A stretch of DNA of 64,000 nt from Escherichia coli (GTDB lineage: Bacteria > Pseudomonadota > Gammaproteobacteria > Enterobacterales > Enterobacteriaceae). The translations under genes and the position numbers were made by a program. The notes under the pieces were generated by a model, which ran no database searches, was not told where the DNA came from, and saw only the letters and a program-made list of their open reading frames with translations. Location: NCBI RefSeq assembly GCF_041248615.1, contig NZ_CP158426.1. One strand, given 5' to 3'. This document shows positions 16,423-58,151 of this stretch, in pieces. Position 1 is the stretch's first letter; every line of letters starts with the position of its first letter.

Positions 16423-17694
16423 CTAGCCAGCTTGAAGCGTCGTTTTTCCTCTCCCCAGTATGTAGGGCGGTACATAGGATTTGCGGCAAGTATCCAGATA
16501 ATCCGACCACCACTGCATCATTGCCTTTCTTGCTTCCAGATGCTCTGCTCTGTGAATATATGCCTGGCGTACGGAGTTACGTTCCTGGTGGCTCATTTGC
16601 CGTTCAACAGCATCCTGTGACCATATACTGGATTCCATAAGGGCACTGCATGCCATTGTCCTGAAACCGTGACCACAGATTTCCATTTTCGTATCCCAGC
16701 CCATCAGGCGTAGCGCCTTGTTCACCGTATTTTCACACATGGGTTTATACGGATTATGGTCCCCGGGGAACACGAGTGCATTATCTCCTGAGATATCCTT
16801 AATCTTTTTCAAGATCGCGATCGACTGTTGTGAGAGGGGTACGATATGAGGCCTGCGCATTTTGGCACCACGACCAGAGTAACGCACGCCTTCAATAGCT
16901 TCGCGCGTGGCGGGTATTGTCCAGACCTGGTTTCCGAAATCAATTTCATGCCAGCGGGCAAAACGCAATTCACTCGAGCGAATGAACAGATGCAGTGTTA
17001 GCAGGATGGCAAGGCGAGTGAGTTCACGGCACTGCTGAAAACTCTCAATGCTCTCAAGCAGTTCTGGAAGACGCTCCAGTGGTAGAGCGGGGTAGTGTCG
17101 TTTTACTGGTGGAGCCGTCACTCCGTCAAGGTTTGCTGCCGGATTAAAATCGATTAATCCATGATGCACGGCGTAGCGCATGATATTCCGGAGGTGCTGG
17201 CGTGTACGGGATGCAACTTCCAGGAGACCCTTTTCCTCAATTCCTTTTAATAAAGTGATGAAATGGCGGGGTTTCAGTTCTGAAACTGACATGGTGCCAA
17301 TGACTGGGAAGATATGATTATTCATGCTGGCGAGCAAACGGTCGGCGGTGTTCTCTGACCATTTTTTATTGCTCTTGTGCCATGCAAGTGCAACGTTTCT
17401 AAACACTTTCTTTGGCATGCGAGAACTGCGTTCGGCTGCTCGCTGCTCTGCTGGATTGATGTTCAGTACCAGCATTTTGCGAATACCTTCACGTTGACTA
17501 CGGGCGTCTGAGAGGGAGATGACTGGGTAGGCACCGAGTGCAATACGTGATTCTTTACCCTTAATACGGTACTTGAGATACCAGTGACGTGAACCGCCAG
17601 GTTTGACCAAGAGATACAGACCGTGGGAATCGGAAACTTTAAAGGGTTTATCAGATGGTTTGAGACTGCGGATTTTGGTGTCGGTAAGAGACAT
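16423..17694 (-). CDS. Tyrosine integrase, P4/CP4-57 type
   Basis: 423-aa ORF; N-terminus MSLTDTKIRSLKPSDKPFKVSDSHGLYLLVKPGGSRHWYLKYR is typical of P4-like integrases; adjacent to tRNA 3' end. Confidence 0.9.
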   Translation of the reverse strand: MSLTDTKIRSLKPSDKPFKVSDSHGLYLLVKPGGSRHWYLKYRIKGKESRIALGAYPVISLSDARSQREGIRKMLVLNINPAEQRAAERSSRMPKKVFRNVALAWHKSNKKWSENTADRLLASMNNHIFPVIGTMSVSELKPRHFITLLKGIEEKGLLEVASRTRQHLRNIMRYAVHHGLIDFNPAANLDGVTAPPVKRHYPALPLERLPELLESIESFQQCRELTRLAILLTLHLFIRSSELRFARWHEIDFGNQVWTIPATREAIEGVRYSGRGAKMRRPHIVPLSQQSIAILKKIKDISGDNALVFPGDHNPYKPMCENTVNKALRLMGWDTKMEICGHGFRTMACSALMESSIWSQDAVERQMSHQERNSVRQAYIHRAEHLEARKAMMQWWSDYLDTCRKSYVPPYILGRGKTTLQAG

Positions 17695-17855: not shown

Positions 17856-17931
17856 TGGCTCCTCTGACTGGACTCGAACCAGTGACATACGGATTAACAG
17901 TCCGCCGTTCTACCGACTGAACTACAGAGGA
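17856..17931 (-). tRNA. tRNA-Asn (anticodon GTT)
   Basis: Reverse complement reads TCCTCTGTAGTTCAGTCGGTAGAACGGCGGACTGTTAATCCG...GGTTCGAGTCCAGTCAGAGGAGCCA; 76 nt cloverleaf. Confidence 0.9.
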
Positions 17932-18922: not shown

Positions 18923-19012
18923 GGAGAGATGCCGGAGCGGCTGAACGGACCGGTCTCGAAAACCGGAGTGGGGGCAACTCCACCGGGGGTTCAAATCCCC
19001 CTCTCTCCGCCA
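18923..19012 (+). tRNA. serU: tRNA-Ser (anticodon CGA), serU-like; 3' half is attL
   Basis: GGAGAGATGCCGGAGCGGCTGAACGGACCGGTCTCGAAAACC...GGGGGTTCAAATCCCCCTCTCTCCGCCA; long variable arm; 90 nt. Confidence 0.9.
18951..19012 (+). repeat. attL (3' portion of tRNA-Ser)
   Basis: 62 bp matching 60161-60222 with two substitutions. Confidence 0.8.
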
Positions 19013-19057: not shown

Positions 19058-19090
19058 CTTGGAATTACTTGGAATATTTTCTTGGAATAT
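19058..19090. repeat. Three direct CTTGGAAT repeats in the attL arm (putative Int/Xis arm sites)
   Basis: CTTGGAATTACTTGGAATATTTTCTTGGAATATTTTC overlapping the int 3' end. Confidence 0.4.
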
Positions 19091-20090
19091 TTTCAGGTAA
19101 CGGGACATCAAGTGTTGGTGAAACTTTAACCTTCCTGTCATAGATTAGCACTTGCCCTTCGGTTTTGTGACCAGAGAAAAGTTGCTTATCCCGGCTGCTT
19201 CCTTCATAGTCTGAAATTCCTTTCGCCTTCAGATCATGAAAGGTGAAGTCGGTTAAAATACCTGAAATTTTTCCAGCACGATTTCTTGCATCTACCCACA
19301 TTTCGTTAAAGCCTTTGTACATATATCGGTTGCCGTATTGATTGCTGATCACATAGGCAGATTTTGGTAACTGTTTTGCTTTTTCGATCGCTGCCTGTAA
19401 TCGTGGACTCCATGCTTTTATCTGTTTTTTTCCGGTTTTCCCTTGCTGGATGAATATCCCGTCGTTTCCAATCTGTTCCCATTTCAGCGATAACACATCG
19501 GAAACCCTCGCTGCACACAGATAGGCAATTTCCATTGCGATAAAAACAGGAAGAGGTGCAACGCTTAATACTGCCTGGTATTCTTTGTCGGTTACATATC
19601 GTTCGCGGTTTTTGGCCTTGAATTTACTTACACCTGCACATGGGTTAGCCTTCACGTACCCTCGCTCATACCCCCAACTGTAAACACGGGACATACTGCT
19701 TTTTTCATGGTTGGCTTGCGTTTTACTCTGCTCCCCTCTTTTGTCCATGTATCGACGGATGTGTTCTGGTTTTATGGAATCCGCTGGTACCTTACCGAAT
19801 ACGGCAAGCAACTTTTTTTGATGTTGCAGATAATCTTTTTGTGTTCTTGGACTAAGGTCACTGTAATAGGCGCTGGCGAGGAATTTTTCCCACAAGCGAC
19901 CGAATGTCATTGCACGATCGCGATTATTTACAGTTTCCTCATACTTTTTCCATAAAGCAGCTAAACCATCCTTGATGGCGGTTAGTGTGACAGATTCTCT
20001 GGATGTTGGTTTCCATACATAACTATATTTATTTGGGTATACATTTGGAGGTAATTTTTCGTGTTCAGGATTTTTCCTTCGTCTTCCCAT
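19065..20090 (-). CDS. Phage tyrosine integrase
   Basis: 341-aa ORF adjacent to attL; C-terminal catalytic region with conserved R...H..R...Y spacing. Confidence 0.9.
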   Translation of the reverse strand: MGRRRKNPEHEKLPPNVYPNKYSYVWKPTSRESVTLTAIKDGLAALWKKYEETVNNRDRAMTFGRLWEKFLASAYYSDLSPRTQKDYLQHQKKLLAVFGKVPADSIKPEHIRRYMDKRGEQSKTQANHEKSSMSRVYSWGYERGYVKANPCAGVSKFKAKNRERYVTDKEYQAVLSVAPLPVFIAMEIAYLCAARVSDVLSLKWEQIGNDGIFIQQGKTGKKQIKAWSPRLQAAIEKAKQLPKSAYVISNQYGNRYMYKGFNEMWVDARNRAGKISGILTDFTFHDLKAKGISDYEGSSRDKQLFSGHKTEGQVLIYDRKVKVSPTLDVPLPENIPRKYSK

Positions 20091-20293
20091 CAGATCGCAC
20101 CAAAATTCGGCTCTACCTCGCGTGGTGGTAAAGTTTTATTGCAGGTAAATAGATCCCGGCTGACAATCGGTTTGCCACTACGATTGGTATAGAACGGAAG
20201 CCCGTTTTCCATTAACCATTTTCGCTGGTGGCTTGCATATTTGCAGCCCGTTAATATTAGCAATTCATCTTCGGTTAAAAATAAGCTGCTCAT
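20090..20293 (-). CDS. Excisionase-like protein (DUF4224-like)
   Basis: 67-aa ORF upstream of and overlapping int; LTEDELLILTGCKYASHQRKWLMENGLPF pattern. Confidence 0.6.
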   Translation of the reverse strand: MSSLFLTEDELLILTGCKYASHQRKWLMENGLPFYTNRSGKPIVSRDLFTCNKTLPPREVEPNFGAI

Positions 20294-20351
20294 AGCTATA
20301 TCTCATAACCGCCGCTAACTATATACGGTTAGCGGCAATTAGGGTTGAACA

Positions 20352-22793
20352 TTAAAAATCAGCCTGACTCGGGATCAGTTTTTGCCAGATAGCTGAAACG
20401 TATTTTGCCTGGTAACGAGCGTCATCAAGTGCATTATGGCGCTCACCTTCGAATGGAATAGCCGTTCTGGCATCGAAGTCTATGGCTTTCCCCAGCTCAA
20501 CGATTGTGCGTACATCGCGATCGTTGTAGTAACGCCACGGGCAGGGGATCCCCTGCCGTTCGTATGAACGGCGCAAAATCGTGTTGTCGAAGTTGGCTCC
20601 ATTTCCCCAAACCTGAACAAAAAATTCACCGGAGTTTTCGTCGATAAATTCCCGCAATTGTAACAGTGCATCATCTAACGGGATTTCATCGGTCATAATG
20701 GCAGATTGCGCTTCGCGTGATTGCTTAAGCCACCATTTAATGGTGTCCCGATCAATGACTCCGCCAGCAGTTTCCAGATCGATAGTCTTACTAAATTCCG
20801 GTCCCATATCTCCGGTTTGCGGATCGAAAAATATTGCACCTATTGAGATGATCGGGGCATCAGGATTTTTTCCCATGGTTTCAAGGTCGATCATTAGATG
20901 GTCACACGTCCTGCTGGTGGATGTGATTTCGTGATGACCGTTCACCTTAATTGGGTGATCTGCCGTCTCGCCAGTTTTATTATCGCTGGCGTGATGCTGA
21001 TTGCCGCCAGGGTTCTCCTTGTGTGGATGTTCAGCGCCTTCCATTTCCTCCGGATCATTTTCCTGAACTTCAACCTGATTCTCTTCATCGAATGTTTCCT
21101 GGTATGTTGCGTCGCCCATCACCGCGCCACAATCAGGGCAGTTGCCGCCACCGCTCTGACCGCAGGCGGTGCAGACTTTTTCCGGTTCCTGTTGCGCTAC
21201 TGGTTCGGATTGTTTCGTTTCTGGCTCGTTTTGTAACGCATTTGGGCTGTTTTGTTCCGCTTTTTGGTCGTTCCGTTCCGATTCATGCTGGTTCTGGTTC
21301 ACAGAATCGCGAGTCTGGATCCCCTTGACCCATTTCGGATCATTAGGGTCGCTAATCCCCTCAACAAATTCACCACGCGATACAGCAAGTAACTTATCGG
21401 CGTCAGGCTGGCTGATATTGGCTGCCTGCATAATTTTGTTTACTTCGTCAGCGGTGACTTTTACTTGGTTAGCGGAACTCACCTGCGACTGAGCATCCAG
21501 CGACTGCGCGTTCTGGCCATGTTCAGTTGTATCCGGTTCCATTGTTTCAGTTGTTGCCTGTTCACCTGCCATTGCGTCAGATGGTTGTGGTTTTTCTTCT
21601 TCTGTTTCACGCTCAGTAACCACCTCGCGGTTAATTTCTTCCAGGATATCTTTTTCCGGCGTATGCCGGGCAGCTGTGAGAGTTTCCTTGCTGGGGTTCT
21701 CGTGATCAGTTTCCGTCAAATAGGCGTTGATATACCCCTGAAGGCGTCCCGGGTAGTGATAAAATTCAGGGTGTGCGCTTCGGATAAGTGCAAAAATAGC
21801 GGCGCGGGAATAGTCCAGAATACCCGGGGTTGCACGAAGTGCTGCGGACCATTCTTTGAACGGACTTTCTTTGTTCAGGACTACTTCTTTTGCGCGACGA
21901 TAAACGCTGCCCGGAATTTCATAAATATTAAAATCCATCGGAAGTGTGGCTGCTGCAATCTCCACATCCAGTGTGTCGAGGGTGTGTACTAAATTCGGAT
22001 TGCGATCGGTTTTGTTCCCACCGCCAGCATTAGCACCGGAAGCCGTGCGGGTGATGCGTGAAACACGATTTCCTTTCATCCACTCTTTTGTCAGCAGACC
22101 CCGATCAGTGTAGTCAGCGTCCAGGTATGCTTCGAAAAAAGCAGTTATTAGTCCCAGGTCTGAATTACCAGGATTAGGGAAAACTTTGTCAGTGTCACGA
22201 ACCAGTTTGTGGAGGTCGCGAATCTCCAGCGAGTCGAGCAGACTGGTTTTATGCGAAATAGCCAGGGCAGTAACAGCCGGTAGTTCTTCAGCCCGTGCAA
22301 TGTGTAATGCCTGGAGTTCGTCGCGTGAAACGTGCGTTACTGGTTTTTCGCTGCCGTGTTGAGCAAGCCAACGAATGGGCAGTTCCTGACCGGAGACAGG
22401 CAGAAGCATGCTCTCCTCAATCTCAGTCATGTCTTCGCCGTTGATGTTGGTATTGTCAGTGCTGGCTGGTTTGTCCTGAACAGAGGGGGAAGGGCCGATA
22501 AATGTCATTGTGATGCCATCTTTCCCGCCTTTTTCATAGCGGTTGCAGAATTCAGTATCAAACACGCCTTCTGGCGGAAGGTCGTCAACAACGGGCAAAT
22601 TGACGCGGACGGGTTTTTTAAAGTCGTCTTCATCATAATCGTTGTCATCCATTGCGGTAATGCAGCGGGAGATTGCAACAGATAATTTTTTTGCTGTAGT
22701 CCAGTAAAAACCACCTTTAATTCCCAGGCGTTTTCTTACTTTGTCATTTTTTGCTTCGCAATATAGTGCAAATTCTTCTTTATCAGTGCTCAT
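20352..22793 (-). CDS. Large early protein with C-terminal DnaQ-like 3'-5' exonuclease domain (intact YdfE-like)
   Basis: 813-aa ORF; C-terminal MIDLETMG ... WGNGANFD ... HNALDDA (DEDDh motifs); central [16 protein letters not shown] zinc ribbon; acidic low-complexity linker. Confidence 0.7.
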
Positions 22794-22886
22794 TATTGGT
22801 AAACCTCATCACAGATTTAAGGGTGAACAAATCTCTGCCATTGCTGACATATAAGAATGAAACTGGATATTTATTACGGTGCTGTT

Positions 22887-23078
22887 TTAAAATCCTGCCG
22901 GGATTTCGTTATTATCCTGGTGAATAACTTTATCGACCGGATAACAGTTGCCTGGAATTTTCTGTTCGGTTGCTGCTGCCATACATTCCTGCTTTGTTCT
23001 GTGAACACTGACTGCAATATCAACTGGCCCTCCGGAAACAAGAAAAACCGTCAGAATAAGTGCAAATACTGGATTCAT
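22887..23078 (-). CDS. ydfD: YdfD-like small protein (63 aa)
   Basis: Start at MNPVF with AAGGA RBS; hydrophobic N-terminus; 4-bp overlap with dicB stop; position matches the Qin ydfD slot. Confidence 0.5.
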   Translation of the reverse strand: MNPVFALILTVFLVSGGPVDIAVSVHRTKQECMAAATEQKIPGNCYPVDKVIHQDNNEIPAGF

Positions 23079-23263
23079 TGTGCACATCCTTTTGGCATCA
23101 GACGTAAACGGGCCAGCATTGAAACAATGCATACTTTATTTAATAACTCCCGTTCGTGTTTTCTTTTGTTAATGGCATCTTCAGTAAATACAGGATTACT
23201 GATAGTGACACCAATTTCAAAACAACCTTCAGACGTATTAACGTTTGGTAATAACGTTTTCAT
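23075..23263 (-). CDS. dicB: DicB cell-division inhibitor (62 aa)
   Basis: MKTLLPNVNTSEGCFEIGVTISNPVFTEDAINKRKHERELLNKVCIVSMLARLRLMPKGCAQ, close to E. coli DicB as I recall it; GAGGG RBS. Confidence 0.75.
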   Translation of the reverse strand: MKTLLPNVNTSEGCFEIGVTISNPVFTEDAINKRKHERELLNKVCIVSMLARLRLMPKGCAQ

Positions 23264-23432
23264 TATCGCGCCCTCAACAATGAGTTTTGTGATGCGGTGC
23301 CTGGTGCCTCCAGGTGACGTTAACCAGTTAACAATTAACGCCGGATACAGAGAATCCACCCATAACACTGTTTTTGGTTTTAACTGTTCCGCGTGCGCTT
23401 AGCCGCATTCACCGCATCACAAAATTCACTTT

Positions 23433-23490
23433 AAAAAGGGCGGCAGAGCAGTCACGGAGTAAAACTGATACCGCCAAACGTCACCAGAAA
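23433..23490 (-). ncRNA. dicF: DicF small RNA
   Basis: Minus strand reads TTTCTGGTGACGTTTGGCGGTATCAGTTTTACTCCGTGACTGCTCTGCCGCCCTTTTT, matching DicF from memory, with intrinsic terminator; lies between ydfC and dicB. Confidence 0.7.
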
Positions 23491-23830
23491 ATTGATAACA
23501 GAGGGCGTTGCAGCGGGGTTGTCACTTAAGCGTATGGTCAACCTGACAACCCGGTGTCCTCAACGGGGAAGGAATAACCCCGCCATACTTACCGCCGCGC
23601 CATTTCGCGGAGTGCCACAACCGGAAGCGCACGGTCGACGAAAATTTAACGACAGGCTATCTATGAACCAGCTACCTCGCCGTGCGCTTTCGCGTTATGG
23701 TCTGACTTTTCAGGGAAATATCCTTTCAGTAAACTGTCAGTGCCGGATGCTCACCCGTGTCCGGCGCACGCACTCCACCTCACCCGTGGAGAACTCCTTA
23801 ATTACCAACCTTAGCTTCGTTGGTTAGCTA

Positions 23831-24049
23831 TTAACGCGGGTATGTAATCATTCTGGCAATGCTTAATGCCGCTGCTTTTTCCAGATTGGTGATATCCTGC
23901 TCCAGAGCGGACAGATTTTCAGCCTGCTTAGCCCTGGCTTCATTAGCCCATTTCAGATCCTGCGCTGCATTAATTTTCTGGCGCATCCACTCATAAAGTT
24001 CATCATCGGTATAGTCTGGCGCGATTATGACGGGTTCTCGTTTCTGCAT
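23831..24049 (-). CDS. ydfC: YdfC-like protein (72 aa)
   Basis: 72-aa ORF in the expected operon position. Confidence 0.55.
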   Translation of the reverse strand: MQKREPVIIAPDYTDDELYEWMRQKINAAQDLKWANEARAKQAENLSALEQDITNLEKAAALSIARMITYPR

Positions 24050-24078
24050 ACTGATTCCTCGCGGTGCTACTTCGCTTA

Positions 24079-24207
24079 TCAGCCGTTAGATTTTGCCGAG
24101 CTGGAAAGCGCCTGTTTAAACTCACTGAAGCTGAGAGCTTCTTCGCCTTCGGCAAGGTCTTCGAAGTATTCTTCGTAAGCCTTTTCCATGATTGTGTCGA
24201 AATCCAT
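24079..24207 (-). CDS. ydfB: YdfB-like small protein (42 aa)
   Basis: Hand-translated MDFDTIMEKAYEEYFEDLAEGEEALSFSEFKQALSSSAKSNG; too short for the ORF track. Confidence 0.45.
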   Translation of the reverse strand: MDFDTIMEKAYEEYFEDLAEGEEALSFSEFKQALSSSAKSNG

Positions 24208-24208
24208 A

Positions 24209-24364
24209 TCACTCACCTGAGTTTCTTTCCAGCCAGCGACGGGCACCATTTTCGGTTTTAAACGTTTTGCTTTTGGTATACGTCATCGCGGTGAACGTGC
24301 CGTCCTGGTTGGGAAACACGCCGTACACCAGAGATTCGTTGTTGCCAAGATCGATAGTATCCAT
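24209..24364 (-). CDS. ydfA: YdfA-like protein (51 aa)
   Basis: Internal start MDTIDLGNNESLVYGVFPNQDGTFTAMTYTKSKTFKTENGARRWLERNSGE. Confidence 0.55.
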   Translation of the reverse strand: MDTIDLGNNESLVYGVFPNQDGTFTAMTYTKSKTFKTENGARRWLERNSGE

Positions 24365-24550
24365 GCTGACCTCATTTCCCCTTAACGCCGGGGTAGCGGA
24401 ACAAAAACCTGCTGCATAGTTATTAAAGTTGAACCCTGCCGTCATGTTCTTACGCCTCGGGCTGGCTACTTAACCCCTGACCACTGCCTGGTAACTCGAA
24501 GTATTGCCCTGCATTCTGTGGGGCGGGGTGGGTTGGTATGAAAAGAAGGA

Positions 24551-24586
24551 TACCCATAGGTATTTAAAAAGTAAATACCCATGGGT
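24551..24586. promoter_or_regulatory. Paired operator-like palindromes upstream of the early-left operon
   Basis: TACCCATAGGTA (24551-24562) and TACCCATGGGTA (24575-24586), 24 bp apart. Confidence 0.45.
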
Positions 24587-24629
24587 AACTTTTTGCGGTG
24601 TCTTAACTGGTGACTAGTTGTTTGGTGAG

Positions 24630-25049
24630 CTATGATGCGTTTTGTGCTTTCTTTTTACGGATTTCTTCGTAGATCATATTGTAATACTGTTTTTTCTCTT
24701 CAAGAGTTTTTAATAAGTTATCCGCTTCACTTTCTGGCAGTTCGTCTAAGAGATCTAAAAAAATACGTTGTCGTGGCGTTAGAACCCTTGTTTCATAACT
24801 GGAGGCTGTGTTCGTTGATGATGAAACGATACCATCCATCCATCCCCGGGGTAACCCAAAGGACTCTTCGATAATCTCCACCATATCATCAGCGATCCGT
24901 TTTTTTCCCTTTTTCCCCTCTGGGTACAACATTCTTGATACATAAGAAGGCTCGCGCCCGATCTTTCTGGCCACGTTAACCGCTTTACCATCGCATTTCT
25001 CATCACGAATTTTGATGAGTTGCTGTCGTCTAAATTCATATTTGTCCAT
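24630..25049 (-). CDS. Prophage repressor (DicA/RacR-like HTH protein)
   Basis: 139-aa ORF divergent from cro-like gene; HTH AVNVARKIGREPSYVSRML; C-terminal LPESEADNLLKTLEE. Confidence 0.65.
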   Translation of the reverse strand: MDKYEFRRQQLIKIRDEKCDGKAVNVARKIGREPSYVSRMLYPEGKKGKKRIADDMVEIIEESFGLPRGWMDGIVSSSTNTASSYETRVLTPRQRIFLDLLDELPESEADNLLKTLEEKKQYYNMIYEEIRKKKAQNAS

Positions 25050-25149
25050 AGGTAAATAATAGATGCGATTACCGCAAGGTAAACAACCTGTGGGTATTGA
25101 CTTTTGTTTACCTGCGGGTATTCTTTACTGTGTTTACTAAGGAGTAGCT
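25050..25149. promoter_or_regulatory. Divergent immunity promoter/operator region
   Basis: Inverted repeats built on GGTA/TACC half-sites (GGTAAATAATAGATGCGATTACC; AGGTAAACA...TGTTTACCT); TTGACT-16 nt-TATTCT promoter-like; AGGAG RBS before 25150. Confidence 0.5.
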
Positions 25150-25431
25150 ATGGAAGAATTAAGAATATTTCTCAATTCTCTTTCGTCAGATGAACAGCGT
25201 ATGTTTGCATGCGAGTGTGGTACCAGCATCGGTTATCTAAGAAAGGCATTGAGTAAAGGTCAAGTGTTAGGGGCATCGTTATGTGTCCTTATTGAGCGAG
25301 CCAGTAATGGTGAAGTTACACGTCAGCAACTAAGGCCTTTTGATTGGATGAATATTTGGCCCGAGCTGGAAGATACCAAAACGTTAACACAACCACTTTC
25401 TAGGAGCTTGATTCATGAAAATCAAGCATGA
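25150..25431 (+). CDS. Cro-like HTH regulator (YdaS-family-like)
   Basis: 93-aa ORF, first rightward gene; HTH-like CGTSIGYLRKALSKGQ. Confidence 0.55.
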   Translation: MEELRIFLNSLSSDEQRMFACECGTSIGYLRKALSKGQVLGASLCVLIERASNGEVTRQQLRPFDWMNIWPELEDTKTLTQPLSRSLIHENQA

Positions 25432-25840
25432 ACACATCCGCATGGCGATGAATGCCTGGGCGCATCCGGACGGTGAAAAAGTTCCGGCAGCTGAAATAAC
25501 CAGGGCTTATTTTGAACTGGGTATGACGTTCCCAGAACTGTATGACGACAGCCATCCGGAAGCCCTGGCTCGCAATACCCAGAAAATTTTCCGCTGGGTA
25601 GAGAAAGACACCCCTGATGCAGTTGAAAAAATTCAGGCGTTGTTACCAGCGATCGAAAAGGCAATGCCACCTTTGCTGGTGGCCAGAATGCGCAGCCACA
25701 GTTCAGCTTATTTTCGGGAACTGGTGGAGACGCGGGAGCGACTGGTGAGAGACGCTGATGATTTTGTCGCAGTGGCAATCGCCGGTTTCAATCAGATGAA
25801 CCGTGGTGGCCCGGCAGGAAATGCTGTGGCAGTACATTGA
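25415..25840 (+). CDS. YdaT-like protein (cII-position gene)
   Basis: 141-aa ORF beginning MKIKHEHI, which I associate with YdaT. Confidence 0.5.
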   Translation: MKIKHEHIRMAMNAWAHPDGEKVPAAEITRAYFELGMTFPELYDDSHPEALARNTQKIFRWVEKDTPDAVEKIQALLPAIEKAMPPLLVARMRSHSSAYFRELVETRERLVRDADDFVAVAIAGFNQMNRGGPAGNAVAVH

Positions 25841-27000
25841 CTGACAATAGCCATATCGAATCGCTTCCGGCAACTCGTGAGGAAAAAGATTCGGTATCAG
25901 AAGAGGTGAGTATGGCTAACGCCTGGCTCAGATTATGGCATGACATGCCAAATGACCCTAAGTGGCGAACAATTGCCAGGGTGTCAGGGCAGCCAATTGC
26001 AACAGTGATGGCAGTGTATATCCACCTCCTGGTGAGCGCGTCACGAAATGTCACGCGAGGTCACATTGATGTCACGACAGAAGATTTGGCAAGTGCGCTC
26101 GACGTGACAGAAGAGGTAATTGATTCAATTTTGCAGACGATGCAGGGGCGGGTACTTGATGGTGATTTAATCACTGGATGGGAAAAACGCCAGGTGCTTA
26201 AAGAGGACAACGGCAATATTTCGCAAACCGCAAAATCTCCTGCAGAGCGCAAGAGGGCGCAGCGAGAGAGGGAAAGAAAGCGGGAACAAAATGGCGATTG
26301 TCACGGCGCGTCACGAAATGTCACGCACATGTCACGACGAGTCACGACAGATAAAGATACAGATAAAGATACAGATAAAGATACAGATACAGATCAAGAA
26401 GATCAAAACACTATGGTCCATGGCGTAAAAAACGCCACGAACCAGGCAGGGGATGTTCAGACCGTCAATCTTGGTCAGCCAGCAGGCACGACACCGGAAG
26501 CCGATTCAGCGTATGCGCTGAAAGCCGATTCGGGCGCTGTGCAGCAGGTGATGACCGCAAGGCCGGAGCAATCACACCAACTGCAGCAGCCTGAAGCCGA
26601 TTCCGCCATTCAGCGGGAAGCCGATCGGGTAGTCCCGGAAAACACCGGGCAGCCTGTGGGACGAGTAGATTATCCGGATGTGTTCGAACAGGTCTGGCGG
26701 GAATACCCGTTGCGTGCTGGGGCAAACCCGAAGAAATCCGCTTTCAGTGCTTGGAAGGCCAGATTACGCGAGGGGGTGCCACCAGAGGCCATGCTGGATG
26801 GTGTGAGGCGTTACGCAAGATACCTGGCGGCTACCGGGAAAACGGGAACGGAATTTGTTCAGCGAGCGACGACGTTTTTTGGACCGGACCGGAATTTTGA
26901 AAACCCCTGGTTTCTCCCGGTAAGCAGTACGAACAACCAGCGTTGTGTGAATCATATTTCTGAACCGGATACCGAAATTCCACCGGGCTTCAGGGGGTAA
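25837..27000 (+). CDS. Replication initiator (O-like N-terminus, DUF1376/YdaU-like C-terminus)
   Basis: 387-aa ORF; N-terminal ANAWLRLWHDMPNDPKWRTIARVSG; iteron arrays inside the coding sequence; DKDT repeats. Confidence 0.7.
   Translation: MTDNSHIESLPATREEKDSVSEEVSMANAWLRLWHDMPNDPKWRTIARVSGQPIATVMAVYIHLLVSASRNVTRGHIDVTTEDLASALDVTEEVIDSILQTMQGRVLDGDLITGWEKRQVLKEDNGNISQTAKSPAERKRAQRERERKREQNGDCHGASRNVTHMSRRVTTDKDTDKDTDKDTDTDQEDQNTMVHGVKNATNQAGDVQTVNLGQPAGTTPEADSAYALKADSGAVQQVMTARPEQSHQLQQPEADSAIQREADRVVPENTGQPVGRVDYPDVFEQVWREYPLRAGANPKKSAFSAWKARLREGVPPEAMLDGVRRYARYLAATGKTGTEFVQRATTFFGPDRNFENPWFLPVSSTNNQRCVNHISEPDTEIPPGFRG
26040..26385. repeat. Phage origin: two GTCACG iteron arrays plus 3x12-bp AT-rich repeats
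   Basis: GTCACG at 26040, 26050, 26060 (GTCACA), 26071 and at 26300, 26310, 26320, 26331, 26341 (10-11 bp phasing); GATAAAGATACA x3 at 26350-26385. Confidence 0.65.
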
Positions 27001-27463: not shown

Positions 27464-27701
27464 CGAGATTAAAGTGCATTAGTTCAGATGTAAATTGACA
27501 TTTTGTGGCACAGGGTAGAGCTAGCGTGGTTGTCCGCTTTGTGCCAAAAGCAGACATTGATAACATTGAGATATGTTAATTTATAGGGAGCAGCTCAAGG
27601 CCCACTGGAACTTCCAGTTTTTGCCCCTGAAACCGTTCCCAATGAGCACTTCCATCTGAAGACTGCGCAGTCTTAGTTTTCGTTGCCTTTAGTTTATCCC
27701 T

Positions 27702-29036
27702 TTATGATACCGATAAAAACTTTGTTGCAATTTCTGCTGCCGTTTTCTCCATGCTGGGATATACAGTGCTTTCGGATATATTAAGCTGCGCCAGCTCTTC
27801 CAGAATTTTATTTTTGTTCGCTATCTCCACTCTGTTAAGAGGAAACTCAGCATCTGTTTCCGGTAAAATGGGATCAAGTCCGAACAGAAGAAAAGCTCCT
27901 GCCTGAGATTGTATGCGTTCATTATTTATTTTAGCCTTAAGGAAAACAACTTTCCTTAAGTCATCAGGAATTATTCTGTTTCTGAAATATGATTTTTCAT
28001 TCTGTATAAGGTCTGCAAGTTTATCCGTGAGTTCAGATAACTCCATATTACCTTTTCTGGAATCAGAGGAGGACAATTTTTCCAACTCTTCGTAAGATAA
28101 AAGTGATAAGTTTGCTATACAGCTCACTGTATCTGAGTCGAAATATTTAATTTTCTTTCTATTTGTTGAAAACGAAATCACCTGTCCGTTTTCATCGGGG
28201 TTCGAACAGCAAGCAAAATATAATGCTATCAGTGGGTTAGATGTAATGTCTAAGAGTCTTGTAGGCAAGCCATAATGCTGCATGCGGACAAGTTTATCAA
28301 TCGTAAATTTATCCTCCTTAAATTCATTTGGTCTTGCGCTGAGTATTTCACGTACTAAATCAGATTCTGAAGCAAGATGCCTGTACGTCCCGTTTTGATT
28401 TTTTCTGTAAAGAGAGGGGACAAGCTCATATGAGCTTTTAGAGTGTCCACGATAAAAGGTAATGAGACCATCACGAAAGTTTTTCTTTATGAAATTAAGA
28501 TAATCTATAATATTCTCGACTACTGGGTATGTTTGTTTTTTTAATTTGATTGTACCTTTCAGTTGGCTATTTTGTTTGTTTAAACCAAGTGATTCCAGAA
28601 CAATATTTAAATCCTTATTTTTTACTGCCCAATGTGTACGACTTAACCCGAAAGATCCTAGCCCTAGGGTTTCTTTATATAATGTCGTTTGGGGATTCGT
28701 TATTTCTCCAAAATTATGATTAATCTTGAAAGAAAATAAAATATCGCCACCATCTTTACGTAAGTTTCTTATTTCCCCAAGTCTGATCCTGATGTACTTG
28801 TTTGTATCATATTCATCATCTTTTGTATAAGTTTCGGTCATGAACAATACTGGTAGCTTGGCGAGTTCTCTTAAGGTATCGGGTCTTATTGGTGTTAATT
28901 TACTGTAAATATCGCTTGGGGTGCCTTCCAGCATGCGGGACATCGAGAATCTTTCCTCGCCTTCTTTAAGCCCAGGGTCCATACACGGCCAGCGGTCAAA
29001 AACGTCCGGTTCTCCGGCCATGATTAAGCTAAACAT
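27702..29036 (-). CDS. FRG-domain protein (candidate anti-phage/abortive-infection moron)
   Basis: 444-aa ORF on the opposite strand to neighbours, in ~1.9 kb AT-rich block; motifs FYRGHS, LVPSLYR, QHYGLPTRLLDITSNPLIALYFA fit the FRG domain as I recall it; palindromic hairpin at its 3' end. Confidence 0.6.
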   Translation of the reverse strand: MFSLIMAGEPDVFDRWPCMDPGLKEGEERFSMSRMLEGTPSDIYSKLTPIRPDTLRELAKLPVLFMTETYTKDDEYDTNKYIRIRLGEIRNLRKDGGDILFSFKINHNFGEITNPQTTLYKETLGLGSFGLSRTHWAVKNKDLNIVLESLGLNKQNSQLKGTIKLKKQTYPVVENIIDYLNFIKKNFRDGLITFYRGHSKSSYELVPSLYRKNQNGTYRHLASESDLVREILSARPNEFKEDKFTIDKLVRMQHYGLPTRLLDITSNPLIALYFACCSNPDENGQVISFSTNRKKIKYFDSDTVSCIANLSLLSYEELEKLSSSDSRKGNMELSELTDKLADLIQNEKSYFRNRIIPDDLRKVVFLKAKINNERIQSQAGAFLLFGLDPILPETDAEFPLNRVEIANKNKILEELAQLNISESTVYPSMEKTAAEIATKFLSVS

Positions 29037-29324
29037 CGCAATCTCCTAAATTTACTTGCTAAAGTCAGTGTACTTTTATCATGTTGCTTCATTGTGTATG
29101 AAAGTAACATTGGTTGTCCATGCTCGTTTGTCTCTCATAATTCACAAATTTGCGAATATTTTTTATAAAAAATTCAAAACAGATAGGTTGACACAATCAA
29201 AATTCACAAAGGGCACCTGCTTCTAATGTGGTTACGGCCCGATCATACGGGCAATGTCTTTCCATTATTGAAAACTCCGGGATCAACCATGATATATGAA
29301 GTCTCTTGCTATCCAGTTAAGTAA

Positions 29325-29615
29325 ATGTCTGCTTCTCGCTCAAAGCGGGCTAGAAGGTTAGCTTGCGTCGGACTTGGCGTATTTAAAGAAGTGCTGGTGG
29401 TGACAGGTTATTATGTTCCATTTCTACAGAACAAAATCACAGAAACTATACCCAATAGTTGTATTGAATCACTGACGAGACATCCTCATATTTATCAGGA
29501 CTGGTGTACGTCCAATACAGGAGGTTGTGGTGCTGGTTCTCAAATGTGCGCTGGCTATTGCTGCTGTAATGGCAATTTATTGCCTTGCTGTTGTTCTTAT
29601 GGATCGCCTTTCTGA
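29325..29615 (+). CDS. Possible small Cys-rich protein (uncertain)
   Basis: 96-aa ORF ending GGCGAGSQMCAGYCCCNGNLLPCCCSYGSPF; no convincing RBS; divergent from the FRG gene. Confidence 0.25.
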   Translation: MSASRSKRARRLACVGLGVFKEVLVVTGYYVPFLQNKITETIPNSCIESLTRHPHIYQDWCTSNTGGCGAGSQMCAGYCCCNGNLLPCCCSYGSPF

Positions 29616-29830
29616 TTGATTTTATATTGGCGAGGTGACGTGAGTTAAGTAGAATTGCTGCGGGTGCTTGAGGCTATCTGCCTCAGGCATGAACACCAAA
29701 GGCAGATAGAGAAAAGCCCCAGTTAACATTACGCGTCCTGCAAGACGCTTAACATTAATCTGAGGCTCAATCTATGAACGGCAAATCTAGGTTAGCCTCT
29801 TACGTGCCGAAAGGCAAGGAGAAGCAGGCT

Positions 29831-29986
29831 ATGAAGCAGCAAAAGGCGATGTTAATCGCCCTGATCGTCATCTGTTTAACCGTCATTGTGACGGCACTGG
29901 TAACGAGGAAAGACCTCTGCGAGGTACGAATCCGAACCGGCCAGACGGAGGTCGCTGTCTTCACAGCTTACGAACCTGAGGAGTAA
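29831..29986 (+). CDS. hokD: Hok/Gef-family type I toxin (HokD-like), with overlapping mok frame from 29774
   Basis: MKQQKAMLIALIVICLTVIVTALVTRKDLCEVRIRTGQTEVAVFTAYEPEE; upstream leader stem-loop CTATCTGCCT...AGGCAGATAG. Confidence 0.85.
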   Translation: MKQQKAMLIALIVICLTVIVTALVTRKDLCEVRIRTGQTEVAVFTAYEPEE

Positions 29987-33295: not shown

Positions 33296-33401
33296 GTGCC
33301 ACTTATCTCGGATAGACATGGTGAATGCGCTAGTGGAGGAGATAAGGGTGATTTTTGAATGCTTGCAACATTGATTTCGTAACGTTATTATCCTGCGCCC
33401 G

Positions 33402-33477
33402 GCCCTTTAGCTCAGTGGTGAGAGCGAGCGACTCATAATCGCCAGGTCGCTGGTTCAAATCCAGCAAGGGCCACCAG
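33402..33477 (+). tRNA. tRNA with CAT anticodon (Met or Ile2, ileZ-like)
   Basis: GGCCCTTTAGCTCAGTGGTGAGAGC...CTCATAATCGC...GGTTCAAATCCAGCAAGGGCCACCA. Confidence 0.8.
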
Positions 33478-33478
33478 C

Positions 33479-33555
33479 CGCCACTAGCTCATCAGGAAAG
33501 AGCGTCAACCCTTTAAGTTGAGTGTGCGAGGTTCGAGTCCCCGGTGGCGGTCCAG
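33479..33555 (+). tRNA. tRNA-like gene, anticodon ambiguous (loop CCTTTAA, nominal TTT)
   Basis: 7-bp acceptor stem CCGCCAC/GTGGCGG, D and T arms present, CCA end; atypical C at position 33; T-stem has one A-C mismatch. Confidence 0.5.
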
Positions 33556-33556
33556 T

Positions 33557-33633
<77 letters not shown>

Positions 33634-33635
33634 AT

Positions 33636-33711
<76 letters not shown>

Positions 33712-55766: not shown

Positions 55767-58151
55767 GTGGATATGGCAGCAGTAAAAATCTCAGGTGTGC
55801 TGAAAGATGGTGCGGGAAAACCAATACAGAACTGCACTATTCAACTGAAGGCAAAGCGTAACAGCACCACGGTACTGGTGAACACGGTGGCTTCTGAAAA
55901 TCCGGATGAAGCCGGACGTTACAGCATGGATGTTGAGTATGGCCAGTACAGCGTCACCCTGCTGGTTGAAGGTTTTCCGCCTTCACATGCCGGGACCATT
56001 ACCGTCTATGAAGGTTCCAGACCAGGTACGCTGAATGATTTTCTCGGTGCCATGACGGAAGATGATGTCATGCCGGAGGCATTGCGTCGTTTTGAGGCAA
56101 TGGTGGAAGAAGCGGCACGCAACGCCGAAGCCGCCTCTCAGAGCGCAGCGGCGGCAAAGAAATCCGAAACTGCAGCGGCATCATCGAAGAACGCGGCGAA
56201 AACCTCAGAAACGAATGCAGCTAACAGCGCACAGGCGGCAGCGACCTCACAGACTGCATCGGCAAACTCCGCGACAGCAGCCAAAAAATCAGAAACCAAC
56301 GCGAAAAACAGCGAGACAGCCGCAAAGACGAGCGAAACCAACGCAAAGTCCAGCCAGACGGCAGCGAAGACCAGCGAAACGAATGCCAAAGCCAGTGAAA
56401 CTGCGGCAAAAAACAGCCAGGTTGCAGCAGCCCAAAGCGAGAGCGCGGCAGCCGGTTCTGCGACTTCAGCAGCCGGATCAGCAACTGCTGCGGCTAACAG
56501 CCAGAAAGCTGCGAAGACGAGTGAAACTAACGCAAAGTCCAGCCAGACGGCAGCGAAGACCAGCGAAACGAATGCCAAAGCCAGTGAAACTGCGGCGAAA
56601 AACAGTCAGGATGCTGCAGCCCAAAGCGAGAGTGCCGCAGCTGGTTCTGCAAGTGCGGCGGCTTCTTCTGCCACTGCATCAGCCAACAGTCAAAAAGCTG
56701 CAAAAACCAGTGAAACCAACGCAAAGGCGAGCGAGACTGCGGCGGCTAACTCGGCGAAAGCATCCGCTGCAAGCCAGACGGCTGCAAAAGCAAGTGAAGA
56801 CGCAGCCAGAGAGTATGCAAGCCAGGCTGCGGAGCCGTATAAACAAGTTTTGCAGCCGCTTCCCGATGTGTGGATACCGTTTAACGATTCACTGGATATG
56901 ATTACGGGCTTTTCGCCATCATATAAAAAGATTGTTATTGGCGACGACGAAATAACGATGCCTGGTGACAAGGTTGTTAAGTTTAAACGCGCATCGAAAG
57001 CAACCTATATTAATAAATCTGGTGTACTGACAGAGGCTGCCATTGACGAGCCGCGATTTGAACGTGATGGCCTGCTTATTGAGGGGCAAAGAACTAATCT
57101 TCTGCTTAATTCAACAAATCCATCTAAATGGAATAAGTCAGGCAATCTGGAACTCACAGAAATATCCACGGATTCTTTTAATTTTACTTATGGGAGATTT
57201 ACTGTAAAAGATACTCTTATTGATCAGACAAGTGCGATTAATATCGTAACGGTTTCTGGCAGTAAAGGATTTGATGTCACAGGTGATGAAAAATATGTGA
57301 CCATTTCATGCCGTGTCAGAAGTGATGTTGAAAATATAAGGTGTCGTTTAAGATTTGAACATCATGATGGTTCTACTTACACTTTTTTGGGAGATGCTTA
57401 CCTCAATTTATCAACACTTGTAATTGATAAGACTGGTGGTGCAGCAAATCGTATTATTGCAAAGGCTGTAAAAGATGAGGCTACTGGTTGGATTTTCTAT
57501 CAGGCTACAATTAATGCACTAGATACAGAGAGCATGATTGGTGCGATGGTTCAATATGCTCCAGTAAAAGGTTCAGGCACAGCATCTGGAGACTATCTGG
57601 ATATCGCAACTCCACAAGTGGAAGGTGGATCAAGTGCTTCGTCATTTATTGTAACTGATATAATTGCAAGCACTCGCGCAAGCGATATGGTGACAGTCCC
57701 AATCAAGAATAACCTTTATAATCTTCCTTTTACAGTTCTTTGTGAGGTACATAAGAACTGGTATAAAACGCCAAATGCAGCACCGCGTGTTTTTGATACC
57801 GGCGGTCATCAAACCGGAGCGGCTATTATTCTTGGCTTCGGTCGTTCAACAGATTACGACGGATTTCCTTATTGCGATATAGGTTTGGCTAACAGACGGG
57901 TAAACGAAAACGCATCGCTTGAAAAAATGGTTATGGGGATGCGTGTAAAGTCAGATCAGTCTACGTGCTCAGTAAGTAACGGGCGTATATCCAGCGAAAA
58001 GAAAGCCACATGGTCCTATATTCAGAACACCGCAATTATCCGTATTGGAGGCCAGACTACAGCCGGGTTGCGTCATTTATTTGGTCATGTCAGGAATTTC
58101 AGAATATGGCACAAGGCATTGACTGATGCTCAGGTGGGGGAGTCAATCTAA
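55767..58151 (+). CDS. stf: Side tail fibre (Stf-like) with Ala-rich repeat region
   Basis: N-terminus MAAVKISGVLKDGAGKPIQNCTIQLKAKRNSTTVLVNTV close to lambda Stf; variable C-terminal half. Confidence 0.8.
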   Translation: MDMAAVKISGVLKDGAGKPIQNCTIQLKAKRNSTTVLVNTVASENPDEAGRYSMDVEYGQYSVTLLVEGFPPSHAGTITVYEGSRPGTLNDFLGAMTEDDVMPEALRRFEAMVEEAARNAEAASQSAAAAKKSETAAASSKNAAKTSETNAANSAQAAATSQTASANSATAAKKSETNAKNSETAAKTSETNAKSSQTAAKTSETNAKASETAAKNSQVAAAQSESAAAGSATSAAGSATAAANSQKAAKTSETNAKSSQTAAKTSETNAKASETAAKNSQDAAAQSESAAAGSASAAASSATASANSQKAAKTSETNAKASETAAANSAKASAASQTAAKASEDAAREYASQAAEPYKQVLQPLPDVWIPFNDSLDMITGFSPSYKKIVIGDDEITMPGDKVVKFKRASKATYINKSGVLTEAAIDEPRFERDGLLIEGQRTNLLLNSTNPSKWNKSGNLELTEISTDSFNFTYGRFTVKDTLIDQTSAINIVTVSGSKGFDVTGDEKYVTISCRVRSDVENIRCRLRFEHHDGSTYTFLGDAYLNLSTLVIDKTGGAANRIIAKAVKDEATGWIFYQATINALDTESMIGAMVQYAPVKGSGTASGDYLDIATPQVEGGSSASSFIVTDIIASTRASDMVTVPIKNNLYNLPFTVLCEVHKNWYKTPNAAPRVFDTGGHQTGAAIILGFGRSTDYDGFPYCDIGLANRRVNENASLEKMVMGMRVKSDQSTCSVSNGRISSEKKATWSYIQNTAIIRIGGQTTAGLRHLFGHVRNFRIWHKALTDAQVGESI
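56322..56700 (+). repeat. Tandem duplication (~2 x 189 bp) inside stf
   Basis: Near-identical units starting at 56322 and 56511, encoding KTSETNAKSSQTAAKTSETNAKASETAAKNSQ.AAAQSESAAAGSA. Confidence 0.6.

Follow-up and report, generated by a model that had tools for sequence, protein, structure and literature searches.

Organization of the operon

The window analysed here is the whole of a 64,000-nucleotide (nt; 64-kb) stretch of Escherichia coli DNA (RefSeq assembly GCF_041248615.1, contig NZ_CP158426.1), and all positions refer to it. The list of its open reading frames (ORFs) contains a run of minus-strand genes at 19065–24445, in which the dicB (dicBF) operon known from the E. coli K-12 prophage Qin, with its small RNA (sRNA) DicF, is followed by a long gene for an exonuclease of 813 amino acids (aa). 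An earlier description of this DNA, hereafter the sequence-only reading, had recognized a Qin-type module on this strand and, at its distal end, an undisrupted counterpart of the K-12 gene ydfE. The module is present, with ydfA, ydfB, ydfC, dicF, dicB and ydfD succeeding each other on one strand in the Qin order; the distal gene is related to ydfE only in part. In the order of transcription, the features are the following.

24209–24364, minus strand: ydfA, 51 aa, first gene of the operon, DUF1391 (Pfam), 51 of 51 residues identical to K-12 YdfA
24079–24207, minus strand: ydfB, 42 aa, 41 of 42 residues identical to K-12 YdfB, named ydfB in strain 201609, where the stretch is identical
23831–24049, minus strand: ydfC, 72 aa, 72 of 72 residues identical to K-12 YdfC
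23438–23490, minus strand: DicF sRNA including the terminator hairpin (Rfam RF00039), with the U-tail running on to about 23433
23075–23263, minus strand: dicB, cell-division inhibitor, 62 aa, 60 of 62 residues identical to K-12 DicB
22887–23078, minus strand: ydfD, 63 aa, DUF1482 (Pfam, E = 1.4e-24), 54 of 63 residues identical to K-12 YdfD
20352–22793, minus strand: gene of the 813-aa mosaic exonuclease, an uninterrupted ORF, analysed with Pfam, BLASTP, AlphaFold2 and Foldseek

The conserved start of ydfA is the ATG at 24364. The operon boundary at 24445 that was originally proposed corresponds to the ATG that opens an extended ORF of 78 aa, and it lies beyond the block shared with Qin. The start of ydfD overlaps the stop of dicB by 4 nt. 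The recognition of the 62-aa DicB is borne out by a match to the DicB family over residues 1–62 of 62 (Pfam PF05358, E = 5e-40, 135.4 bits with a cutoff of 27) and by the NCBIfam model NF049927 (134.3 bits, cutoff 100).

The RF00039 covariance model of DicF, which had been suggested as a check, aligns to 23438–23489 on the minus strand over model positions 1–52 of 52, with 76.7 bits (gathering score 48) and E = 3.6e-15. This is the one DicF match in a scan of the whole window at the Rfam gathering thresholds, and it is reproduced in a permissive re-scan of 20000–25500. The 53-nt dicF sequence of MG1655 is identical to window positions 23438–23490, and the 3' hairpin with its U5 run folds as an intrinsic terminator. 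The interval initially given for DicF, 23433–23490, thus has the correct 5' end and includes five extra nucleotides of the U-tail. The intergenic leader between DicF and dicB (23286–23426, minus strand), which is nearly identical to that of K-12, matches the Rfam sRNA family STnc100 (RF02076) weakly and below threshold (38.8 bits, gathering score 47, E = 5.6e-6).

For comparison with Qin, the window was aligned to a K-12-like genome and then to MG1655 itself. From the start of ydfA to the stop of ydfD, the block is 1478 nt long in both the window and MG1655, with 96.9% identity and not a single indel; the operon proteins are 86–100% identical to their K-12 counterparts. Thus, the genes, their order and their spacing are those of the K-12 operon, and DicF, YdfA and YdfC are identical. 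The DNA similarity to Qin starts about 40 nt upstream of the ydfA ATG and extends exactly to the ATG with which the distal gene starts; judging from these boundaries, only the ydfA–ydfD cassette is of the Qin type, and both flanks differ. The differences include the control region, with a repressor/Cro pair distinct from dicA/dicC, the N-terminal third of the distal gene product, the integrase and the integration site, which is tRNA-Ser in the window and rspB in Qin. Furthermore, the prophage in the window appears complete, whereas Qin is decayed. The designation ‘Qin-type' accordingly applies to the block itself and does not extend to its regulation.

The distal gene encodes a mosaic exonuclease

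The 813-aa protein consists of three regions: a folded RecE-type N-terminal region (residues 1–380), an acidic disordered linker (residues ~396–626) and a DEDDh 3'-5' exonuclease domain (residues 632–803). Pfam detects Exonuc_VIII (PF06630) at residues 57–189 and the Rv2179c-like domain (PF16473) at residues 632–803, the latter with 228 bits (cutoff 27). The catalytic pentad of the DEDDh domain is intact (D636, E638, D736, H786 and D791, in three motifs aligned to DexA), so that the uninterrupted gene with C-terminal DEDDh motifs described in the sequence-only reading holds up in full. The AlphaFold2 model has high confidence for residues 1–380, shows residues ~396–626 as disordered and assigns the DnaQ fold to the C-terminal domain, with a moderate predicted local distance difference test (pLDDT) score. 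The top Foldseek matches of this domain in the PDB are a DnaQ domain, DexA, RNase T and the oligoribonuclease Orn, all with a probability of 1.00, and a sequence search of the PDB retrieves only DexA of phage T4 (8KEL; two DexA sequences listed, E = 1.8e-6). Of the previously reported zinc ribbon, the sequence shows no more than a CxxC-x7-CxxC motif (C541-x2-C-x7-C-x2-C555), located within the disordered linker, where the AlphaFold2 confidence is low.

The relationship of this protein to YdfE, which was to be assessed by direct alignment, is not the one originally envisaged. BLASTP finds no significant similarity to K-12 YdfE: the best E value is 4.0 for the 306-aa product of MG1655 (b1577) and 3.2 for the 258-aa PGAP fragment. 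In its true undisrupted form, ydfE occurs in intact Qin prophages integrated at rspB and encodes a protein of 823 aa (e.g. WP_000048318.1 of strain 573); in strain 573, residues 1–256 of this protein are 100% identical to MG1655 YdfE. The window protein occupies the same slot after ydfD and is 70% identical to the strain 573 protein, in BLASTP over residues 270–812 only, a segment that includes the linker, the Cys motif region and the DEDDh domain; window residues 1–269, in contrast, are unrelated to YdfE residues 1–244, the part that survives in K-12. Because it shares only residues 270–812 with the intact form and has a RecE-type N-terminus, the 813-aa protein is best described, as far as these alignments go, as a mosaic relative in the ydfE slot and not as the intact form of ydfE.

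The second relationship is with RecE, the exodeoxyribonuclease VIII of prophage Rac. BLASTP aligns residues 58–617 with RecE residues 50–592 (58.6% identity), that is, with the N-terminal region of RecE, a domain of unknown function (PMC11611040). The PD-(D/E)XK nuclease of RecE (residues ~564–866) is missing from the window protein, which has the DEDDh domain instead and is not accompanied by a recT partner. In line with the partial match, the NCBIfam RecE equivalog NF007259 scores 942 bits with a cutoff of 1269 and covers profile positions 1–600 of 877. Thus, on the evidence of its domain composition, the protein is a fusion in which a long acidic linker connects a RecE-type N-terminal region with a 3'-5' exonuclease of the DEDDh type, and it is neither an intact YdfE nor a RecE. 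With T4 DexA (8KEL) it shares the DnaQ-fold DEDDh domain and all five catalytic residues; the differences are that, here, this domain forms only the C-terminal quarter of an 813-aa protein and that the insertions of DexA are not conserved. Stand-alone DEDDh exonucleases of this family (PF16473) occur in many phages, for example in mEp235, with 58.7% identity. DexA, like its homologues, is an exonuclease that acts on DNA (PMC12153337).

The fusion is not isolated. An HMMER search with residues 1–392 produced 215 clusters at 50% identity, and the C-termini of the cluster representatives of at least 480 aa that match the N-terminal region were probed with BLASTP: 14 have a DEDDh C-terminus, 22 the RecE-type catalytic region, some of these RecE-type matches being weak or internal, and 47 match neither probe. 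When 10 of these 47 were examined with Pfam, three contained PDDEXK (DUF3799), one was a RecT fusion and six had no recognizable C-terminal domain. By this survey, the protein belongs to a mosaic family of prophage exonucleases that combine a RecE-type N-terminal region and a disordered acidic linker with a swappable nuclease domain, and such a family offers a comparative handle on the role of the RecE N-terminal region. A broader generalization can be proposed, which we regard as rather unlikely: the RecE-type N-terminal region could be a general carrier for interchangeable nucleases (PD-(D/E)XK, DEDDh and, occasionally, RecT fusions), and the annealase-free DEDDh form described here could be not a recombination exonuclease but a DexA-like degrader of DNA ends that is co-expressed with the DicF/DicB block and serves host-DNA scavenging or phage exclusion.

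The control region and the prophage

The cassette lies between the immunity region of the prophage on one side and its excision and integration genes on the other. The following features surround the operon.

18923–19009, plus strand: tRNA-Ser, attachment site, adjoining the 3' end of the integrase gene
19065–20090, minus strand: tyrosine integrase, uninterrupted 341-aa ORF, Pfam Phage_integrase, catalytic domain
20090–20293, minus strand: excisionase-like DUF4224 protein, 67 aa (Pfam, E = 1.9e-15)
24547–24587, minus strand: putative early-left (PL-like) promoter with two operators, from a reading of the sequence
24630–25049, minus strand: prophage repressor, 139 aa, analogue of CI/DicA, PHROG 5736 transcriptional regulator (E = 4e-70)
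25056–25124: divergent PRM-like/PR-like promoter region with three operators (25070–25081; 25085–25096, with one mismatch; 25109–25120)
25150–25431, plus strand: Cro/YdaS-like regulator, 93 aa, Pfam YdaS_toxin below cutoff, PHROG 35 / PHROG 163 (a basis shared with the CII/YdaT-like protein)
25415–25840, plus strand: CII/YdaT-like protein, downstream of the Cro/YdaS-like gene

The repressor gene has the same direction of transcription as the dicB operon. The similarity of its product to DicA is confined to the C-terminal 46 aa (32.6% identity, E = 1e-7), and the NCBIfam DicA model scores 23.9 bits with a cutoff of 101; the protein is 39% identical to the repressor of a Rac-like prophage. The 93-aa Cro/YdaS-like protein has no similarity to DicC. 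Control of the operon by DicA/DicC was considered and rejected, given the repressor score below the NCBIfam DicA cutoff, the unrelated Cro-like protein and the end of the Qin homology about 40 nt upstream of ydfA.

The intergenic regions on both sides of the repressor gene share a short palindrome. The sequence TACCNNNNGGTA (TACC-N4-GGTA) occurs in four exact copies in the 64-kb window, all of them in the immunity region, with two at 24551–24587, in the gap between the repressor gene and ydfA, and two at 25070–25120, in the gap between the repressor gene and the cro-like gene; a fifth copy, with one mismatch, is located at 25085. The two left palindromes, TACCCATGGGTA (24576–24587) and TACCTATGGGTA (24551–24562), bracket or overlap a -35 hexamer TTTACT (24570–24575) and a -10 hexamer TATCCT (24547–24552) separated by a 17-nt spacer. 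On the right side, a promoter scanner identified a PRM-like site at 25083–25056 (minus strand) and a PR-like site at 25097–25124 (plus strand). At the threshold of this scanner, no strong sigma-70 promoter is seen upstream of either ydfA or the exonuclease gene; the PL-like promoter was read by hand, its hexamers agreeing with the consensus at 8 of 12 positions. Because the palindromes are restricted to the immunity region and overlap promoter-like hexamers, we infer that they are putative OL/OR operators of a distinct immunity type.

The element spans the interval from tRNA-Ser/mtfA to about 59.9 kb of the window and carries genes for replication, Q, four tRNAs, lysis, terminase, portal, capsid, tail and tail fibres. 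By its gene content, the prophage looks complete, and it is plausible that it is functional. Among the genes that follow the exonuclease gene, which are the DUF4224 excisionase-like gene and then the integrase gene, there is no recT or other annealase gene.

Interpretation of the locus

We consider it probable, at about 85%, that the locus is the early-left (PL-type) unit of a lambda-like prophage whose integration site is tRNA-Ser, beside mtfA, and that this unit is repressed by a non-DicA repressor and carries the DicF/DicB module along with the mosaic exonuclease. The assignment to a PL-type unit of a prophage is supported by the gene neighbourhood, with xis, int and tRNA-Ser downstream and the cro-like, cII-like, replication, Q, lysis and structural genes on the other side.

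Under this interpretation, the 139-aa repressor would, in a lysogen, bind the TACC-N4-GGTA operators over the leftward promoter and keep the unit silent. Upon derepression, transcription would proceed through ydfA, ydfB and ydfC and would stop, or the transcript would be processed, at the DicF hairpin, yielding the 53-nt DicF, which would pair with the ftsZ mRNA and further mRNAs of the host. For dicB, ydfD, the 813-aa exonuclease, xis and int, expression would depend on read-through or an internal promoter. DicB would block division together with MinC, and YdfD would act as a lysis protein that is countered by DicB. These functions are transferred to the window from the near-identical genes of K-12, where DicF pairs with the ftsZ, xylR and pykA mRNAs, DicB inhibits division through MinC, and YdfD lyses cells unless DicB is co-expressed (PMC5069750; PMC11430063). 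In K-12, one promoter is located after dicA, with internal ones before dicF and dicB, and the promoter before dicB transcribes dicB, ydfD and ydfE through to intQ (PMC5069750; PMC11430063).

As for the exonuclease, its nuclease domain is, by all the comparisons above, a DEDDh 3'-5' domain of the T4 DexA/RNase T fold and not the PD-(D/E)XK 5'-3' exonuclease of RecE. The enzyme most likely acts by 3'-5' degradation of nucleic-acid ends during lytic growth, with DNA as the most probable substrate by analogy with DexA; recombination, scavenging and exclusion are the candidate roles of such a degradation of DNA 3' ends.

Several observations weigh against parts of this scheme. The PL-like promoter, with its 8 of 12 consensus positions, falls below the scanner threshold, and the left inverted repeat is flagged as terminator-like, so that it could simply end the repressor gene. 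No N-like antiterminator gene was recognized, and read-through past the DicF terminator is therefore assumed from the K-12 work. The Pfam name of the DEDDh domain is that of an exoribonuclease, which bears on the choice between DNA and RNA as the substrate. With regard to the integrity of the prophage, PGAP marks the integrase as ‘frameshifted' in the near-identical strain 201609, and a search for direct repeats of at least 14 nt at the prophage flanks that could represent attachment (att) sites found none, which leaves its ends approximate. Strain 201609 matches the window at 100% over 20000–24700 only, and collinearity breaks at 27558–29597.

Two other interpretations of the exonuclease follow the names in use for proteins of this kind. 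That the gene is the undisrupted orthologue of K-12 ydfE and the locus simply an intact Qin has several points in its favour: a full-length DEDDh exonuclease does occupy the position of ydfE, after ydfD and before xis/int, PGAP labels both this protein and the 823-aa Qin protein ‘exonuclease', and the two are 70% identical over residues 270–812. However, the best E value with MG1655 YdfE is 4.0, the Qin DNA homology ends precisely at the start codon, the real intact ydfE is present in strain 573, with residues 1–256 equal to those of MG1655 YdfE (100%), and the immunity region, the integrase and the integration site (tRNA-Ser versus rspB) all differ from those of Qin. This interpretation is largely refuted for the N-terminal third of the protein, and for the locus as a whole we judge it quite unlikely. 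The name ‘exodeoxyribonuclease VIII', used in phage and Joint Genome Institute (JGI) records, would instead imply a RecE that drives RecET-type recombination, and both the 58.6% identity over residues 58–617 and the Exonuc_VIII match in Pfam agree with it; yet the match is limited to the non-catalytic region of RecE, the NCBIfam RecE score remains under its cutoff (942 versus 1269 bits, positions 1–600 of 877), the PDB sequence search returns no RecE nuclease structure at threshold, and the C-terminus is DEDDh, with xis as the next gene and neither recT nor another annealase gene. A role as RecE is, accordingly, exceedingly improbable.

A different possibility is that the prophage uses the exonuclease against other phages, as an enzyme of the DexA-homologue kind (‘HREX'/EcD) that destroys the modified DNA of superinfecting T-even phages. 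The homology of the C-terminal domain to T4 DexA (E = 1.8e-6 and the Foldseek matches), its intact catalytic residues and the reported protection against T4 by the E. coli DexA homologue EcD (HAK9828821.1; PMC12153337) all count in favour of such a function. The HREX/EcD residue criteria (PMC12153337) were checked by a pairwise alignment to T4 DexA, which is weak in this part, and for EcD from its published description: the residues of DexA that are reported to contact 5-hydroxymethylcytosine (5hmC) are not conserved (Y756 stands in the place of W152, and a deletion covers D169), whereas the tetramer residue D90, which is alanine in EcD, is kept as D708. Moreover, among the operon proteins and the exonuclease, PADLOC detected no defence-system family, apart from a negligible AbiEi match to YdfA (E = 0.009), and the gene is located in a repressed early-left operon, with no promoter of its own recognized. 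A dedicated anti-phage nuclease is thus improbable, and the preferred reading of the exonuclease remains that of a mosaic enzyme of the early-left unit.

Distribution and significance

The 4.7-kb query has some match in 4902 of 5426 complete E. coli genomes, and in 753 of them the match covers at least 80% of its length. The exact 813-aa sequence is found on 177 public contigs, and many one-residue variants are labelled ‘exonuclease', ‘3'-5' exoribonuclease' or ‘exodeoxyribonuclease VIII'. The ydfA–ydfD block matches 60 phage records, five of them at a coverage of at least 80%, including Tritos, whose record annotates DicF, and vB_EcoS-689R5; in the phage record vB_EcoS-640R1, the 813-aa gene is 98.6% identical and has the same arrangement.

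The biology of dicBF and its spread among prophages have been described (PMC5069750; PMC11430063). Balasubramanian et al. (2016) found dicBF in several Qin-like prophages and prophages of enterohaemorrhagic E. coli (EHEC), whereas their survey of about 2,000 phage genomes revealed no DicB/DicF-like sequences (PMC5069750); this negative result is superseded by the current collections. Thus, the dicBF module is known and ordinary, and the distal exonuclease is common. With a textbook module and an exonuclease that is already in the public databases, the locus has little discovery value. Its interest lies, on the one hand, in a correction of annotation, the distal gene being distinct both from intact ydfE and from recE, two ideas that are found in records, and, on the other hand, in the position of the cassette under a non-DicA immunity system within a prophage that seems complete.

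Other features of the prophage

Within the 387-aa O-like replication ORF (25837–27000, plus strand), the 21-mer GCGCGTCACGAAATGTCACGC is repeated exactly at a distance of 270 nt (26036 and 26306), and a 12-nt tandem repeat, ACAGATAAAGAT, is present at 26347–26394 in three overlapping 24-nt copies that encode TDKD repeats; these repeats are candidate origin iterons. The accessory (‘moron') slot between the replication genes and hok/sok is occupied by a 444-aa ORF (27702–29036, minus strand) with an FRG domain (Pfam, E = 2.6e-22), and the same slot in strain 201609, the nearest complete genome, by QueH. The prophage also encodes a hokD/sok type I toxin–antitoxin system (29597–29836, plus strand; Rfam sok, 111.7 bits) and, downstream of the Q antiterminator gene, four phage-borne tRNA genes (33401–33707, plus strand) that are, according to the annotation of a related genome, specific for Ile, Lys, Thr and Gly.

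Just outside the prophage, a second integrase gene (16423–17694, minus strand; 423 aa), read as P4-type, adjoins tRNA-Asn (17859–17931, minus strand) and suggests another integrative element upstream; its counterpart in strain 201609 is truncated, with an adjoining IS3 element. In the tail-fibre region (56265–56744, plus strand), degenerate tandem repeats of 21 nt and 189 nt correspond to repetitive coding rich in Ser, Ala, Lys and Thr.

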